A stretch of DNA of 64,000 nt from Dehalococcoidia bacterium (GCA_965207225.1 CBDBLV010000003.1:96001-160000); one strand, 5' to 3'; shown: positions 20,403-55,577, counted from the stretch's first letter. Made by a program: numbers and translations. Notes: generated by a model not told the origin, from the sequence alone.

Positions 20403-23366
20403 ATGAGTGAGGCGAAAATGGAAAGAGCGCAGGTGGGAAGCGATGCGGACACCGATGGCTGTACACCGCGAAAAGATAATGGGCTGAGGTCCACCCCCAG
20501 GCTTGAGGACTGGGACGACTGGAAGGAGTATGACCCCAGGGAGTGGCCCCGCAGGGTGGAGCGACGTTACACCCTGGTCCCGACCGCATGCTTCAACTGC
20601 GAATCGGCCTGCGGCCTGCTCGCATACGTAGACAAGGACACCCACCGGATACGCAAACTGGAGGGGCACCCCCTTCATCCGGCCAGCCGGGGCCGGAACT
20701 GTGCCAAGGGAGCCGCCACCCTTAACCAGCTCACGAATCCCGACCGGATCCTCTATCCCTTAAGGAGAGTGGGCAAACGGGGAGAGGGAAAATGGCAAAG
20801 GGTGTCGTGGGAAGAGGCCCTCGAGGACATCGCCGGACGCGTCCGAAAGGCCATTATCGAGGAGCGACGCGACCAGGTGGTCTATCACGTCGGCAGGCCG
20901 GGTGAGGACCTGTATACCGAGCGGGTGCTGGCTGCCTGGGGGATCGATGGTCACAACTCTCATACCAATATCTGCTCGTCCGGCGCCCGACTTGGCTATG
21001 CAGCATGGATGGGAATGGACCGCCCCACGCCCGACCATGACAACGCGAAATTCATCTTGCTCATGAGCTCCCACTTGGAGGCAGGGCATTACTTCGTACC
21101 TCAGGCCCAGCGGATCGTGGAATCCCAGGCCTCTGGTACTAAGGTCGCTGTAGTCGACACCCGGCTGTCCAATACGGCCTCCAAGTCGGACTACTGGCTG
21201 GCCCCGAGACCTGGTACCGAAGCGGGTATGTTGCTGGCCATAGCCAACTATCTGCTCCAGGAAGACCTGTACAACCGCCCTTTCCTTGAGAAGTGGGTCA
21301 ACTGGCGAGACTTCATGAAGGACCAGACCTATCTCCGCTACCTCGTCGATCAGGAACTCCTGGGTCAGATACCCGAAGACTATTCCTTAGACAGCTTCAT
21401 CCAAGTGCTGAAGGACCTCTACGGCGGATACACCTTTGAATGGGCTGAGGCCGAAACAGGTGTATCTGCCAAACAGCTTCTTGAGGTTGCGGAGGAGGTG
21501 GCCCGGGCCGGGACCGCATTCGCCAGCCACATATGGAGAAATGCAGCTGCGGGGCACCTGGGCGGGTGGATGGTGCCCCGGACGCTCTTTTTCCTGAATG
21601 TGCTCACCGGGTCGGTCGGTACCCCAGGCGGCACCCTGCCCAATGCCTGGGCCAAGTTCGTGCCCCGGGCCTTCACCCAGCCGGCCCCCCTGAAGAACTG
21701 GAACGATGTCCACTTCCCCCCCGAATATCCCTTCGCCCACTTCGAGATGAGCTTCCTGTTGCCCCACCTCCTCAAGGAGCGAGACCGGTCCATAGATGTC
21801 TATTTCACCCGGGTCTACAACCCCGTTTGGACCAATCCCGACGGCTTCTCCTGGATCGATATGTTCCAGCACAGCAGCCGCATCGGGCTCCACGTGGCCC
21901 TCACGCCCGTGTGGAACGAGACAGCCCAGTATGCCGACTACGTCCTTCCCATGGGCCTCTCCCCCGAGCGACATGACCTCCACAGCTACGAAAGCCACGC
22001 ATGCCAGTGGATCGGGTTCCGGCAGCCCGTGGTCAGGGTAGCCAGGGAGAGAGACGGCGATCAGATAGACTTCACTCACCAGACGAACCCGGGAGAAGTG
22101 TGGGAGGAAAACGAGTTCTGGATAGAACTTTCCTGGAAGATAGACCCTGACGGCTCCCTGGGCATTCGGCAGCACTTCGAGTCGCCCTACAGGCAAGGCG
22201 AGAAGGTCTCGATAGGGGAGTATTACCGGTGGATTTTTGCAAACTCCGTGCCCGGGCTCCCCGAGACCGCAGAAAAAGAAGGTCTAACACCTCTCGAATA
22301 CATGAAGCGATACGGCGCATTCAAGGTAACCGACGACGTATACAGTCAACAGGAACGGCAGCTACCCCTAGAGGTTACGGGAAAGGCTGAGGTGGATGAA
22401 GAAACACGGCAGGTCTGGAGCTCGACTCCCCCGCCCCCGACCAACGTGCGTCCCTACCCCGGACCCTTCCGGGACAAGGATGGTCGGACCAGGGTCGGCA
22501 TACAGGTGGACGGCCAATGCGTCGAGGGCTTTCCTACTCCCTCGGGCAAGCTGGAGTTCTACTCGCCCACTTTTGCAGAGTGGGGCTGGCCCGAGTACGC
22601 CATTCCCATCTACCCCCGCAATCCTCAACAGCGGGAGAGCATGCCCCACATTACGAGCCAGGTGCATCACTCGATAATAGACACGTCCCGTAACGAGTAC
22701 GTACTCCTGCCCACTTTTCGGCTGCCCACCCTGATTCATACCCGCACCAACGGGGCCAAGTGGCTCCACGAGATTGCCCACATCAACCCCGTGTGGATTA
22801 ATCCCCGGGACGCCGCCCGGATCGGCGTAGTCACCGGCGACCTGGCAAGGGTCGAGACCGAAATAGGCCACTTCGTCGACCGCGTCTGGGTTACAGAGGC
22901 GATCCGTCCCGGCGTAGTCGCGTGTTCCCACCACCTGGGCCGGTGGCGGCTGCACAGGGACTCGGGGAGTGACAGGTGGAACTCGGCCCTGGTGACCATC
23001 GAAAAGCAAAACGACACGTGGTCCCTACGGCAAATCGAGGGCGCGACTCCCTTCAAAAGCGCTGACCCGGATTCGGAGCGGATCTGGTGGAGCGACGGCG
23101 GAGTGCACCAGAACCTGGTTTTTCCTGTCCAGCCCGACCCCATTAGCGGAGGCCACAGCTGGCACCAGAAGGTGAGGGTTGAGAAAGCAGGCCCCGACGA
23201 TGAGTACGGGGACATCTCGGTAGATCAAGACGCCGCATCCCGGGTGTACAAGAGCTGGCTGGAGCAGACCAGGCCCGCCCCGGGCCCCGGGGGCCTGCGA
23301 AGACCCCACTGGATGCTGCGCCCTTTGAAGCCCCACATCGACGCCTATAGATTCCAGAACTCGTAA
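20403..23366 (+). CDS. DMSO-reductase-family molybdopterin (bis-MGD) oxidoreductase catalytic subunit
   Basis: CFNCESACG..NCAKG [4Fe-4S] motif, PDRILYPLRR, ADYVLP, WINPRDAARIG. Confidence 0.92.
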   Translation: MSEAKMERAQVGSDADTDGCTPRKDNGLRSTPRLEDWDDWKEYDPREWPRRVERRYTLVPTACFNCESACGLLAYVDKDTHRIRKLEGHPLHPASRGRNCAKGAATLNQLTNPDRILYPLRRVGKRGEGKWQRVSWEEALEDIAGRVRKAIIEERRDQVVYHVGRPGEDLYTERVLAAWGIDGHNSHTNICSSGARLGYAAWMGMDRPTPDHDNAKFILLMSSHLEAGHYFVPQAQRIVESQASGTKVAVVDTRLSNTASKSDYWLAPRPGTEAGMLLAIANYLLQEDLYNRPFLEKWVNWRDFMKDQTYLRYLVDQELLGQIPEDYSLDSFIQVLKDLYGGYTFEWAEAETGVSAKQLLEVAEEVARAGTAFASHIWRNAAAGHLGGWMVPRTLFFLNVLTGSVGTPGGTLPNAWAKFVPRAFTQPAPLKNWNDVHFPPEYPFAHFEMSFLLPHLLKERDRSIDVYFTRVYNPVWTNPDGFSWIDMFQHSSRIGLHVALTPVWNETAQYADYVLPMGLSPERHDLHSYESHACQWIGFRQPVVRVARERDGDQIDFTHQTNPGEVWEENEFWIELSWKIDPDGSLGIRQHFESPYRQGEKVSIGEYYRWIFANSVPGLPETAEKEGLTPLEYMKRYGAFKVTDDVYSQQERQLPLEVTGKAEVDEETRQVWSSTPPPPTNVRPYPGPFRDKDGRTRVGIQVDGQCVEGFPTPSGKLEFYSPTFAEWGWPEYAIPIYPRNPQQRESMPHITSQVHHSIIDTSRNEYVLLPTFRLPTLIHTRTNGAKWLHEIAHINPVWINPRDAARIGVVTGDLARVETEIGHFVDRVWVTEAIRPGVVACSHHLGRWRLHRDSGSDRWNSALVTIEKQNDTWSLRQIEGATPFKSADPDSERIWWSDGGVHQNLVFPVQPDPISGGHSWHQKVRVEKAGPDDEYGDISVDQDAASRVYKSWLEQTRPAPGPGGLRRPHWMLRPLKPHIDAYRFQNS

Positions 23367-23399
23367 TACAATGGCCCTGCGTCGGAAGGAGGGGATGGT

Positions 23400-50949: not shown

Positions 50950-51754
50950 CCCAAAAGGCGTGAAAGTGGTTCAGAGGGCCGTGCCCTTGGCCCACCGGAT
51001 ACGCCGCTTCTATTGACGCCGACACATATTCCTTGGCTTGTGACACTGCCTTTTCAACGGAACATCCCCGGGCCAGGTGCGCCGCTATGGCCGAGGCGAA
51101 AGTACATCCCGTCCCATGCGTATTCTTCGATTTTATACGCTCAGATACGAACTCGTGTACCGCCTCTTCCGAATACAGGATGTCCTTTACGGGCCCCTCC
51201 CGATGCCCGCCCTTGATCACCACCCACTTTGTCCCCATCCCGGTTATGACCCTGGCGGCGCGTACCGCATCTTCGTCCGTCTCTATCGTCATGTCTGTCA
51301 ATGCCTCAGCTTCCGGGACGTTGGGCGTCACCACCAGCGCCCTGGGCAGCAGCCTCGACCTGTACGCATCAATCGCCTCTTCCCGAAGAAGTCGGTCTCC
51401 GCTCTTGGCCACCATTACCGGGTCCACCACCACGTTGGGCATGCCCAAGGCTTGAATCCGGTCGGCCACGGCATCGATTATCCCGCTGTGTGCCAGCATC
51501 CCCGTCTTCACCGCATCCGTCCCGATGTCCGACATCACCGTGTCTATCTGCGCAGCAACCATGTCCGCCGGTATCTCGGCTATCCCGTCTACCGACAGGG
51601 TGTTTTGTGCCGTTACCGCTGTTATCACCGAGGTCCCGTACACACCCAGGGCCGCAAAGGTCTTCAGGTCAGCCTGTATCCCCGCCCCTCCCCCCGAGTC
51701 CGAACCCGCTATCGTCATGGCCCGGGCCACCCGCTTTACTGACGAATGGCTCAT
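50942..51754 (-). CDS. thiD: Hydroxymethylpyrimidine/phosphomethylpyrimidine kinase
   Basis: [38 protein letters not shown]; ATGA overlap with the upstream cyclase. Confidence 0.95.
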
Positions 51755-52623
51755 GCTATGGCTAGCGGGTTCCACGGAGAACCGGTCCCGTGTGTGATCC
51801 GCAAGGGCGTCCCGACGAACAGGAACTCGTACACCCTGTCCCGGGCCAGATCTTGAAGGTCCAGGTTCTCCAGCAGGTAGACCCCCAGGTCCCGGAGCCC
51901 GTGCCGATGCAAGGGCATCTCCACGGGGGACTCAATATTCTCGAAGAGCTCGCATGTTGGGTGGTCCGTCCCTATGGCGACCACATCGTGCTCCTTGAGC
52001 CATGCCAGCACCGAGCCGTCGGGCCCGGGAAACGACCGTGACCAGCTCTCCCTGTCGGAGTGGAACAAGTTGTACCAGCCAGTCCGCACCAGTACCACGT
52101 CCCCGGGTTTCAACTCGATTCCCTGGGCGGCAGCGACGTTATCCAGGTCGGTGGCAGTGACGGACTCGGCAGCGGCAAGGTGCTCGACGCCCTTGTAAGC
52201 CGCTATATCAAGCATGACGCCTCGCCCGAATATGTGGCGCACGTTCTCAATGCCCACGCGCTCGACTCCACGGCTGCTTGCATATTTCTCCGACGAAAAC
52301 CCGTTGTATAGCTGGCCGTCGTGCCACGAATGCCCTATCCCGTCTATGTGCGTGCCGGAATGAGTCTCCATTGCGATCACGTCGTCGATAATGTCAAGCT
52401 CGGGGCCGTACAGGTGCTGCCAATGCGACACCCGCCACGTCTTATGGAATAGAGGGAACTGCGGCCCGTCTTTCTCCAACGGGACCGCCAGGCTGTAGAT
52501 ATCCCCCTTCTTCACTAGCTTTATCGCTTCCAGCACGGACGCTTGGTTCTGGATGAGGTTCAGGACACCTATCTGGTCGTCGGGGCCCCACCGACCCCAG
52601 TTGGACAGCTTTTCATTACTCAT
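51751..52623 (-). CDS. Cyclase/kynurenine-formamidase-family metal hydrolase
   Basis: [33 protein letters not shown]. Confidence 0.9.
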
Positions 52624-52635
52624 GTTGTGCCCTTC

Positions 52636-53511
52636 CTATATGATCGCCAGTGGATTCCAGGGAGAGCCCGTGGCATGGGTCAGCCGCAGCGGCGCCCCTA
52701 TGAAAAGAAACTCGTAGACCTTGTCCCGGGCCAACTCCTCCAGGTCAAGGTTCTCTAGTATGTACACCCCCAGGTCCCGAAGGGCATACCGGTGAAGTGG
52801 AAGCCCCCCCTCCGGGCTCCCGACCTTGATCCTCAGCTCGCAAGTCGGGTGGTCCGTGCCGATGGCGCATACGTCGTGCTCCTTCAGCCACGGCAGCACC
52901 GAGGCATTTGGTCCCGGAAAAGATGTGGCCCACCTTGCCCTGTCCTTCTCGAACAGCGTGTACCACCCGGTGCGGATCATTACCACGTCACCCGGTTCAA
53001 GCGAGATGCCCTGCGCCCGTGCCGCCCCATCCAGGTCCTCGGGGGTTATGGCCTCGGCCTCCTGGAGGTGATCGACACCCCTATACGCCGCAACGTCCAG
53101 CATCACCCCCCGACCCACTATGTGCCGTACATTCTCGATACCCGTCCGCTCGACTCCACGGCTGCCGGCGTACTCATCCGAGGAGAAGCCGTTATAGAAC
53201 TGGCCGTCGGCCCACACGTGCCCAATAGCATCAATATGCGTGCCGGAATGGGTCTCCATGATGATGACGTCGTCGATGATGGACTGGTCGGGGTCCTTGC
53301 GTTCCGCCACATGCGAGACGCGCCAGGTCTTGTGGAAGGTCGGCATCTGCGGCCCGTCCTTCTCAAGCGGCACCGCCAGGCTGTAAATCTTCCCCTCCCT
53401 GACCATGCTGAACGCCTTGAGCACCTGCTCCCGACCCTGCAGCAAGTTGAGAACGCCTATCTGGTCGTCCGGGCCCCACCGGCCCCAGTTGGAAAGGTTC
53501 GTATCCGTCAT
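52636..53511 (-). CDS. Cyclase-family metal hydrolase (tandem paralog)
   Basis: Same motifs (THSGTHIDA). Confidence 0.9.
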   Translation of the reverse strand: MTDTNLSNWGRWGPDDQIGVLNLLQGREQVLKAFSMVREGKIYSLAVPLEKDGPQMPTFHKTWRVSHVAERKDPDQSIIDDVIIMETHSGTHIDAIGHVWADGQFYNGFSSDEYAGSRGVERTGIENVRHIVGRGVMLDVAAYRGVDHLQEAEAITPEDLDGAARAQGISLEPGDVVMIRTGWYTLFEKDRARWATSFPGPNASVLPWLKEHDVCAIGTDHPTCELRIKVGSPEGGLPLHRYALRDLGVYILENLDLEELARDKVYEFLFIGAPLRLTHATGSPWNPLAII

Positions 53512-53623
53512 GGCTTCCTCCGGTAACTGGCTGTGAGTCGACTAACGGCCTGATTATACGGGTTTTGGGGGGTTGGGTGGGTTATAATTGACCCACAGGC
53601 CCTATCCCAAAGGAGGACCGAGG

Positions 53624-54055
53624 TTGAAGAAGAAGACTTTCGAGCAGGCCCTGAAGGGCGCCGTCAAGATGTCCGAAAAGTACGTCGAGAAGGGCCCCTA
53701 CGAGTTCTACTCCGACCCCGAGATCGTCGACGAGGTCCAGAAGGGTCTCGCCAAGAACGAGGTCAAGTGGGGATACCGATACTGTCCCTGAATGATCGTA
53801 GAAGGCGACCCGGAGCGGGATCGCATGAAGATCTGCCCCTGCGAGAGGCACCACGAGGACATAGCTCGGGATGGCTTCTGTATATGAATGTTCTTCGTAA
53901 GCGAAGAGTTTCTTCGCAAGATGGAGCAGGGCGAGGAGCCCATGAGCACCCTGGCCGGAGAGGGCGGTGCCCCCGGTGAGGAGCTGTTCCCCGACGACAA
54001 GTACACCGGCGCCCCCAAGAAGTCGGCCCGGGGCCCGGCCAGCCGTAAGAAATAG
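53624..54055 (+). CDS. Ferredoxin:thioredoxin reductase catalytic subunit homolog with two selenocysteines (143 aa on readthrough)
   Basis: AAGGAGG RBS then TTG; GLAKNEVKWGYRYCP-U(53789)..ICPCERHHEDIARDGFCI-U(53885)-MFFV..TAG. Confidence 0.88.
53805..53824 (+). promoter_or_regulatory. Candidate bacterial SECIS 1
   Basis: GCGACCCG-GAG-CGGG(A)TCGC hairpin 13 nt after the TGA. Confidence 0.7.
53901..53917 (+). promoter_or_regulatory. Candidate bacterial SECIS 2
   Basis: GCGAAGA-GTT-TCTTCGC hairpin 13 nt after the TGA. Confidence 0.7.
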
Positions 54056-54080
54056 CCCAACGACCTTTTTTGCATGTGGA

Positions 54081-54113
54081 ATAATGGGAAACTGCTGAGC
54101 AGTTTCCCATTAT
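54081..54113. other. Perfect 16-bp inverted repeat (terminator or operator)
   Basis: ATAATGGGAAACTGCT-G-AGCAGTTTCCCATTAT. Confidence 0.6.
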
Positions 54114-54206
54114 CATGTACGGAGGAAACGCAACCTCAGACCCCTGCTTGCGTTATCTATTGCAAGGCCCGCATTTCACGATTACGACCTCAAGACATAG
54201 GTGGAA

Positions 54207-55577
54207 ATGATTAAGCTCAAGTTACTGGCCGTGGCCCTTATCGCTTTATTGGTCGCGGCCGCATGCGGAGGCGGAGTAGACGCAACTGCCACCACCGAGG
54301 CCGGGGCCCTGACCCCCCAGGCCCGGGATACCACCGGCACCCCGACTCCCACGGCCACCACCCCCATCCCCACCGCCACCCCCATACCCGCTCCCGGCGT
54401 GGTAATTCCCACCCCCGTCTCCTTCATCCCCGACCTGGGGGACATCGCCTATGGTTATGTCGAGACCATCGTAAGCAGGTTCGGAGAACGGGATTCCGCC
54501 ACAGACGGCGAACTGGCGGCGGCCGAATACATCGCCGGCGAATTCCAGTCCTTTGGATACGATGCCGAGCTCCGCAGCTTTGACCTCCAGGTGATTGACG
54601 ACTCGGAGCCCTGGCTAAGGGTAACCAGCGATGGAGACCGGGAAATCGAGGCCTTGTTCATGTTCCGCACGGGCTTCGGAGACGTGGAAGGGACTCTGGT
54701 GAACGTTGGGCTTGGCCTCGAGGACGACTTCCCGGATGAGGGCCTTGACGGGGCCGTTGCCCTCATCGAACGGGGTGGAGCCGACTTTGAAGTCAAGTTC
54801 CAAAACGCCGTGGCCGCCGGGGCCTCTGCAGTCATCATCTACAACAATGAACCGGACAACTTCTCCGGCACCCTCCAGTCTCAGGGCCAGGTACCGGTCC
54901 TCTCCTTGAGCCAGGAAGACGGCCAGGCCCTCGCTTCGATGATAGAGTCCGGCGAAGTAAGCGTCCGCGTCCGTGTCATAACCCTCGACCGGGAGAGCCG
55001 CAACGTAGTGGCCGTCAAGGAGGGGTCCGACCCCAACGCCCTCGGCATCGTGGTCGGCGCCCACTTTGATGGCGACGCCGAATCGGTCGGAGCCAACGAC
55101 AACGCATCCGGGACTGCAGCTCTCCTCGCCGTGGCCGATGCCTTGAAGGACGACACCTTCGCTGCGGACGTCACTTTCGTCGCTTTCGGCGCCTCGGGCC
55201 TCGGCCTTATCGGCGCCCAGAGCTTTGCCAGCGGCCTGCTGGACGAAGGTGCCCCGACCGTCGGTCTGATGATTAACATGGACGTGGTTGGAAGCGGCGA
55301 GAGAGCAGTCGTGGCGGGGGACCCCGTCACACAGCTTGAAACCCTTCGGCTGGGCACGGAGCTCGGGGCGGTAGTTTCGCCCGGCAACACACCCGACGGA
55401 GTCTTTAGTGATCACATGGTCTTCCAGGCCCTGGACATTCCCACCGCCTTCTTCTTCACAGATGACCTTTCCAGGGTCAACACCCCTGAGGACACCCTGG
55501 AATTCGTAGACGCGGCTTTGCTGGGCGATGTCGTGAATTTGGTCGTTGCCCTGGTCCGCAGTGGTGCAGGTCAGTAG
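54207..55577 (+). CDS. M28 peptidase-like lipoprotein with PA domain, probably catalytically altered
   Basis: Lipobox AAAC; ALIERG, VIIYNN; GAHFD, GANDNASG, NMDVVG, SDH. Confidence 0.85.
   Translation: MIKLKLLAVALIALLVAAACGGGVDATATTEAGALTPQARDTTGTPTPTATTPIPTATPIPAPGVVIPTPVSFIPDLGDIAYGYVETIVSRFGERDSATDGELAAAEYIAGEFQSFGYDAELRSFDLQVIDDSEPWLRVTSDGDREIEALFMFRTGFGDVEGTLVNVGLGLEDDFPDEGLDGAVALIERGGADFEVKFQNAVAAGASAVIIYNNEPDNFSGTLQSQGQVPVLSLSQEDGQALASMIESGEVSVRVRVITLDRESRNVVAVKEGSDPNALGIVVGAHFDGDAESVGANDNASGTAALLAVADALKDDTFAADVTFVAFGASGLGLIGAQSFASGLLDEGAPTVGLMINMDVVGSGERAVVAGDPVTQLETLRLGTELGAVVSPGNTPDGVFSDHMVFQALDIPTAFFFTDDLSRVNTPEDTLEFVDAALLGDVVNLVVALVRSGAGQ

Follow-up and report, generated by a model that had tools for sequence, protein, structure and literature searches.

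Two conserved in-frame UGA codons in an FtrB-family selenoprotein gene of Dehalococcoidia

The locus considered here raises the question of whether a reading frame that conventional translation ends at a TGA is in fact one gene, and, if it is, what kind of redox protein is made from it. It lies in a stretch of 64,000 nucleotides from a Dehalococcoidia bacterium (the window; the source genome is denoted G000), in which translation table 11 yields two open reading frames on the same frame, 53588..53791 and a tail at 53888..54055, the first of them ending at the same position, 53791, as the open-reading-frame track of the initial annotation. When TGA is translated as selenocysteine (Sec, U), the frame runs from a TTG start at 53624, which is counted as residue 1 throughout, across TGA at codons 56 and 88 to a TAG at 54053-54055, and the three motifs that had been read in it, C54-P-U56, C71-P-C73 and C86-I-U88, are reproduced exactly (Table 1). 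The proteins of relatives begin at the matching position with M-P-K-E... or L-K-K-K (80 loci), and residues encoded 5' of the TTG show no conservation among the genes of 16 relatives.

Table 1. Features of the double-Sec ftrB-family locus, in window coordinates.
Feature	Position	Strand	Remarks
Shine-Dalgarno-like AGGAGG	53611..53616	+	7 nt 5' of TTG, from sequence
Double-Sec ftrB-family gene	53624..54055	+	143 codons then TAG; two in-frame UGA (Sec)
C54-P55-U56 motif	53783..53791	+	UGA-1 at 53789-53791; aligned to C55-P-C57 of 1dj7
SECIS-like hairpin 1 (putative)	53805..53824	+	columns 17-36 after UGA-1, loop G at +25
C71-P72-C73 motif	53834..53842	+	two predicted [4Fe-4S] ligands; aligned to C74-P-C76 of 1dj7
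C86-I87-U88 motif	53879..53887	+	UGA-2 at 53885-53887; aligned to C85-H-C87 of 1dj7
SECIS-like hairpin 2 (putative), GCGAAGA-GUU-UCUUCGC	53901..53917	+	columns 17-33 after UGA-2
C-terminal tail, residues 106-143	53939..54052	+	acidic/Gly-rich then basic; G-x-x-L-F motif conserved

With regard to its family, the translated protein matches Pfam PF02943 (FeThRed_B, the catalytic chain of ferredoxin:thioredoxin reductase, FTR), scoring 76.6 bits where the gathering score is 22. It also matches the NCBIfam equivalog NF041072, "FtrB family double-selenoprotein", its residues 2-123 covering model positions 1-121 with 213.7 bits (cut-off 160). A six-frame search of the genome with NF041072 gave 203.4 bits with two TGA codons inside the match, and the gene is the single FeThRed_B match in G000. 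Since a curated model covers exactly such a two-Sec protein, the kind is not new. The two-Sec FTR homologue was already known and the present gene is a rediscovery, so that the novelty that the initial annotation had left open is gone: besides the equivalog model, such a form has been in print since 2008. In that study, Zhang & Gladyshev (PMC2398784) count FTR among their new selenoprotein families, giving 2 sequences with Sec and 10 homologues with Cys, and describe an FTR read from the ocean metagenome (GOS; JCVI_READ_1093012271142) in which Sec occupies both redox-active Cys positions and a SECIS element is present. Both this read, as presented there, and NF041072 resemble the window gene in having Sec in place of both redox-active Cys; behind the UGA a SECIS element is reported for the read, where the window gene has putative SECIS-like hairpins, and nothing essential separates the window copy from NF041072 except that the last 20 residues of its tail lie beyond the model. 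FTR was entered in the table of a 2022 review as COG4802 with the motif CxU, and in that of a 2026 review as NF041072, motif CxU, 2 Sec (PMC13188914); the accessible part of the latter review makes no mention of Chloroflexota or Dehalococcoidia. A search of the open-licence PMC and bioRxiv literature for selenium, cluster or activity measurements on any family member found none, the sources being in-silico only.

Whether the frame could be an FTR-like gene spoiled by two nonsense mutations, or even three unrelated short ORFs, is answered by its relatives. Both TGAs stand at identical codons, 32 apart, in all 16 genes of relatives that were compared. In the relatives sample, 16 of 61 genomes score above the family cut-off (two TGAs in every one, 12 of 12 from the window's own family among them). 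In an evenly drawn sample of 401 genomes of the class, 34 lie above the cut-off and 34/34 have two TGAs, no Cys variant of the double-Sec subfamily above the cut-off being found in this sample; in one further genome, G334, the gene lies on two contig ends, each part having one of the TGAs. The species-representative collection held 168 relatives, the best 80 of which, all titled as Chloroflexota or Dehalococcoidia metagenome-assembled genomes, have C-P-TGA, 32 codons and C-I-TGA in 80/80 loci, the 16-gene, 34-genome and 80-locus sets overlapping and sharing ancestry, so that their counts are not independent. The family is double-Sec in every genome examined and, given the 34 of 401 sampled genomes and the 168 species-representative loci, it is common in Dehalococcoidia.

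The selection acting on the frame past each TGA points the same way. The mean pN/pS over the 16 genes is 0.24 for the 50 codons ahead of UGA-1, 0.14 for the stretch that separates the two UGAs and 0.34 for the 19 codons that follow UGA-2; selection between and after the TGAs is thus purifying. Among 76 aligned proteins, R75-H-H-E-D-I80, R82-D83, C86-I-U88 and F90-F91 are invariant, as is C71-P72-C73 (76/76), and the M-F-F-V-S-E-E-F stretch 3' of UGA-2 is almost so. Even in the tail, which is free of Cys, F122 is invariant in the 76 sequences and E113, G118 and L121 are each kept in at least 90%. Both TGA sites are spanned by contigs from four public runs, each of a different study (two DNA-type, two from RNA libraries), and no alternative letter at either TGA, including the TGC or TGT that had been suggested as a thing to look for, was found among the matches listed; the contigs of the RNA libraries span the gene, which as contigs cannot prove its transcription.

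A pseudogene, for which the end of the table-11 frame and the existence of a decayed copy in one relative could be cited, is a reading with hardly any probability left, refuted as it is by the conservation of TGA at both codons in 80/80 loci (best of 168) and 34/34 genomes, by the low pN/pS between the TGAs, by a score above the curated equivalog cut-off and by the standing of the gene as the sole FeThRed_B gene of its genome. The gene is a functional selenoprotein gene, and the earlier argument that the two TGAs go beyond what random nonsense mutation would give is borne out. The decayed copy just mentioned (L040, on G035:C43, minus strand) is a double-Sec one, in which C-P-TGA and M-P-L-S-G-D-P are kept, C-S-C stands for C-P-C and similarity is gone after R-H-H. 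A second FTR-like frame, a weak match that has no stops, was seen in another genome (G040; C120:22465-22782, minus strand), divergent beside the double-Sec gene at 23035-23382 (plus strand).

The host is equipped to decode the two codons, as all four components that the initial annotation had proposed to look for are present in G000 (4.03 Mb on 5 contigs, 92.3% complete, 8.3% contamination). These are selA (556.2 bits, cut-off 267.9), selB (326.6 bits, or 358.9 including a C-terminal piece, cut-off 242.25), selD (387.4 bits; G000:C5:649975-650898, minus strand) and a tRNA-Sec that scores 66.4 bits with the Rfam model and is called tRNA-SeC, anticodon tca, by ARAGORN at C5 478668-478766. The selD gene has one in-frame TGA of its own, so that selenophosphate synthetase is itself a selenoprotein in G000. 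There is also a second, borderline match to the tRNA-Sec model at G000:C2:390271-390356 (plus strand; 47.1 bits, the gathering score being 47), which probably represents some other long-arm tRNA, because ARAGORN gives no tRNA-SeC call there. As G000 is a multi-contig bin, five single-contig relatives were examined in addition, and in 5/5 selA and tRNA-Sec share the chromosome with the double-TGA gene. Within the class sample, selA was detected in 300 of the 401 genomes (with the unpublished G243 included) and in 33 of the 34 family-positive ones, the exception being G047, which is 71% complete.

TGA is at the same time an ordinary stop in G000, where it terminates 486 of 1469 stop-to-stop frames of at least 400 codons, and several family genes elsewhere (among the best 80 of 168 loci) also terminate at TGA; both observations argue against a genome-wide reassignment. 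The idea that TGA encodes a standard amino acid throughout the genome, as in codes of the 4/25 type, or that sequencing errors have replaced TGC or TGT, has the open frame itself in its favour and nothing else, and it was rejected as next to impossible in view of the normal use of TGA as a stop, the complete Sec machinery and the agreement of independent assemblies and the four public runs, in which no alternative letter occurs among the matches listed.

At the RNA level, each UGA is followed, from 13 nt 3' of it, by a hairpin of 7 bp with a G in the loop (Table 1). When compared with dinucleotide shuffles in the window, hairpin 2 is unusually stable (z -3.77, with 0/200 shuffles equally stable) and hairpin 1 is unremarkable (z -1.17). 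The hairpins overlap constrained codons and were therefore compared with synonymous recodings as well, against which both are the more stable in the window, hairpin 1 at -11.6 versus -5.4 kcal/mol (z -2.73) and hairpin 2 at -9.2 versus -4.6 kcal/mol (z -1.82). The same recoding test on 81 sequences gave median z values of -2.69 and -1.87 for hairpins 1 and 2, with 69% and 72% of the sequences below -1.64, as compared with 6-19% below this value and medians of -0.40 to 0.00 at five offsets within these genes that served as controls. Consistent with that, the codons of the stems are almost frozen (GGC in 94% and CGC for Arg+11 in 95% in hairpin 1; AGC for Ser+37 in 95%, GAG in 100% and CTT for Leu+41 in 97% in hairpin 2), whereas six-fold codons that lie outside them are free to vary (entropy 1.6-2.3 bits).

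In a fixed register, pairing is retained in 93.5% of cells in hairpin 1 and 93.7% in hairpin 2, versus 15-45% and 31-68%, respectively, when the partner strand is slid. Compensatory double changes in the fixed register were seen at 0 pairs in either hairpin, and the argument for an RNA element rests for that reason on the freezing of synonymous sites and the recoding controls. In four loci (L094, L117, L109 and L121) hairpin 2 is remade from other letters, with the register shifted by one and the (A)GUU loop kept, which is the nearest thing to covariation in these data. Taken at the level of sequence, a constraint on the RNA is well supported, and the hairpins are best described as putative SECIS-like elements. 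The organism decodes Sec, selection acts on the whole read-through frame as a single gene, and the RNA hairpins stand at fitting places.

It has to be noted that Sec insertion is inefficient, and that a short message carrying a pair of UGAs should compound this inefficiency. This general consideration favours a reading in which the UGAs are decoded only in part, the main product being an N-terminal fragment of 55 residues, or in which Cys is inserted at low selenium, so that the UGAs would act as a selenium-sensing switch. The strong purifying selection that continues after UGA-1 and the retention of hairpins at both sites make this very improbable as the account of the locus; partial decoding adds to the best explanation, that of a double-Sec protein, and does not replace it.

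As to the type of enzyme, a phmmer comparison with solved structures placed the protein closest to 4tpu (E 6.9e-13) and 7pwe (E 1.2e-12), and much further from the FTR of Synechocystis, 1dj7 (E 3.3e-4). The entry 4tpu is deposited as "Rubredoxin", and we take it to be the ferredoxin:disulfide reductase (FDR) of Methanosarcina acetivorans. The two Sec are aligned with the last residue of the first and of the final CxC motif; in the alignment to 1dj7, U56 is placed opposite C57, U88 opposite C87, and C54, C71, C73 and C86 opposite C55, C74, C76 and C85. In the Synechocystis enzyme C57-C87 is, as we assume, the redox-active disulfide, and the other four Cys are presumably the ligands of the cluster, so the claim of the initial annotation that exactly the redox pair is encoded by TGA and all four ligands remain Cys agrees with the alignment at all six positions. 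The same placement of the two Sec of the ocean-metagenome read, at redox-active Cys positions, is stated in the available text of PMC2398784. The classical CPC/CPC/CHC set of motifs is replaced by CPU/CPC/CIU, with four Cys kept, two others changed to Sec and Ile in the place of His.

The assignment to FTR holds in part. The protein is a homologue of the catalytic chain, sharing with the plant and cyanobacterial enzyme (PF02943; 1dj7) the Pfam family and the six motif positions. The name ferredoxin:thioredoxin reductase, however, is not supported, as the nearest solved structures are of the FDR type and no variable chain accompanies it: in G000, at 92.3% completeness, PF02941 had no match, the control genome of Synechococcus being positive. 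FTR is a heterodimer in which a [4Fe-4S] cluster helps to reduce an adjacent redox-active disulfide, according to the accessible part of PMC6006212; against this heterodimer with its C-H-C motif, the window protein has C-I-U, no variable chain in its genome and the weak relation noted above. The FDRs, described in the accessible text of PMC6262447 as Fe-S enzymes that are kin of the FTR catalytic chain and reduce atypical thioredoxins, are like the window protein in the CPx/CPC/CxC spacing and in having no His in the last motif, where FDR (4tpu, 7pwe) has Tyr. They differ in having Cys at both redox positions and an extra domain (a rubredoxin-type C-terminus in L041-L046), whereas the window protein has Sec twice, Ile and no added domain; no rubredoxin domain was found in its 143 residues, for which Pfam gives FeThRed_B only.

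Several kinds of this family occur side by side in the class. Genes of the FDR type with C-P-C/C-P-C/C-Y-C and a fused rubredoxin domain were found at five loci (L041, L042 and L044-L046), classical C-H-C genes at four (L047-L050), and FTR-type genes with a single Sec at two (L051:1423-1923, plus strand, and L052:1354-1821, minus strand, in genomes G032 and G048), the last with the motifs C-P-C ... C-H-TGA. The single-Sec genes resemble the window gene in being FeThRed_B kin that have Sec at the redox position next to the cluster and, behind the TGA, a hairpin, and differ from it in having one Sec only and keeping the His; they belong to a different subfamily, score 43 bits on NF041072 and have no NCBIfam model of their own.

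This variety bears on the residue at position 87. The His of C-H-C is important in plant-type FTR, and the initial annotation had suggested that it could give way to Ile because a selenolate needs no His. That explanation finds no support, since the nearest Cys-only relatives (4tpu, 7pwe and the five C-Y-C loci) lack the His as well, with Tyr in its place, and the single-Sec form keeps His beside Sec in both L051 and L052; a link between Sec and the loss of His is therefore unsupported. Ile87 is a fixed trait of the double-Sec subfamily (80/80 loci, best of 168), and because Ile stands for His in every member, the proton-handling step of FTR is not directly transferable to it.

Taken together, the gene very probably encodes a genuine FtrB double-selenoprotein of the NF041072 kind, a single-domain protein of about 16 kDa that is related to the FTR catalytic chain and to the archaeal and bacterial ferredoxin:disulfide reductases, with both UGAs decoded and a mechanism that, by homology, would be FTR-like. 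SelB and tRNA-Sec would presumably be recruited by the hairpin behind each UGA. In the finished protein, a [4Fe-4S] cluster is predicted by homology to be held by C54, C71, C73 and C86, with U56 and U88 as an adjacent redox pair beside it that, on oxidation, would form a diselenide. The cluster would be reduced by a one-electron donor of low potential, such as ferredoxin, whereupon the Se-Se bond would be cleaved and U88, the cluster-proximal residue, held at the cluster; the exposed selenolate of U56 could then attack a disulfide of a thioredoxin-like or other target, and a second electron would release the product.

The Se-Se bond in this scheme is what we infer from the homology with the FTR disulfide. 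The AlphaFold2 model built from the 76-sequence alignment is poor (mean pLDDT 57, pTM 0.52, with values below 50 over residues 106-143) and offers no geometrical evidence of contact between the two Se. A natural parallel may be seen in SelL, a selenoprotein family reportedly described by Shchedrina et al. in 2007, which is said to have a thioredoxin fold and a UxxU diselenide motif with the Sec three residues apart and no Fe-S cluster. Like the window protein, it has a natural two-Sec redox motif that is thought to form a diselenide; the Sec pair of the window protein differs in being 32 residues apart and in its predicted position beside a [4Fe-4S] cluster. For a diselenide placed beside a [4Fe-4S] cluster, no expression, measurement or solved structure was found in the open-licence PMC and bioRxiv literature.

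The surroundings of ftrB in the window, where two cyclase-family genes, a ThiD kinase, an amidohydrolase, two peptidases and a permease are its neighbours, give no hint of its function. The two cyclase genes are tandem paralogues of Pfam Cyclase (PF04199) at 51751-52623 and 52636-53511 on the minus strand, of 290 and 291 residues and with near-identical domain coordinates, and this pair lies immediately 5' of ftrB on the opposite strand. On the 3' side, a perfect 11-bp inverted repeat with a 3-nt loop, TGGGAAACTGC / GCAGTTTCCCA, was seen by eye at 54085-54109 (plus strand); it begins 30 nt past the stop and has no T run. A scan of 53450-54250 for promoters and terminators returned 0 sites of either kind, and the inverted repeat was not called a terminator.

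The neighbourhoods of the relatives offer more. In 23 of the 80 loci (best of 168), among them L069, L077, L080, L081 and L084, an unannotated ORF of about 115-120 residues stands directly 5' of ftrB on the same strand, and its product has an invariant CxC...CxxH pattern (C68, C70, C112 and H115 in the numbering of G000), hence the designation Cys3His. The copy in G000 is unlinked to ftrB (C4:468926-469288; L135:1427-1792, plus strand). A Pfam and NCBIfam scan of three members gave no significant match, the best being at E ~0.1, far below the cut-offs. In the class sample the protein was detected in 18 of 401 genomes, of families f1, f32, f34, f35 and f87, and 18/18 of these belong to the 34 genomes that carry the double-Sec gene; it was detected in 0 of the 367 without an ftrB match above the cut-off, a number that includes G334 with its gene split over contig ends. 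It was not detected in 16 of the 34 ftrB-positive genomes, including some that are 94-99% complete, in a search that is biased to the lineages concerned, as its profile derives from genes next to ftrB.

The Cys3His protein is new as a candidate partner. It could be a putative electron-entry metalloprotein that takes the place of the rubredoxin domain or the variable chain, or else a dedicated substrate. That the double-Sec FtrB is half of a two-protein redox module specific to Dehalococcoidia, with the Cys3His protein as its other half, is put forward as a tentative proposal that we ourselves regard as doubtful.

A genuine double-Sec protein need not, however, work as sketched above. Its oxidised state may be something other than a simple diselenide and its target something other than thioredoxin, for example if U88 stays on the unique iron of the cluster, or if another low-potential substrate is served together with the Cys3His partner. 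This proposal is on the whole rather unlikely. It would accommodate the invariable Ile at the position of His, the lack of both a variable chain and a rubredoxin domain and the constancy of the two Sec in all 34 genomes, which, with no Cys variant above the cut-off, suggests chemistry beyond the reach of sulfur; the confinement of the Cys3His protein to family-carrying genomes, with a place directly 5' of the gene in 23 of the 80 loci, is consistent with it as well. Against it stand the alignment of all six motif positions with FTR and FDR, the failure to detect the small protein in nearly half of the family-positive genomes and, in the window, a set of neighbouring genes that are unrelated. 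The FTR-like mechanism with a predicted diselenide is thus the reading that we prefer.

The value of the locus as a discovery is small, as a two-Sec FTR homologue was published as early as 2008 and the NCBI annotation model names such proteins. The lasting interest lies in the chemistry, that is, in a predicted diselenide set against a [4Fe-4S] cluster. What is added here, namely the abundance of the family in Dehalococcoidia, its constant double-Sec state, its lack of a variable chain and of a rubredoxin domain and a candidate partner protein, makes bench work easier to plan. If the two-protein module were real, the Fe-S-coupled diselenide would supply a single dedicated client with reducing power at an unusually low potential.
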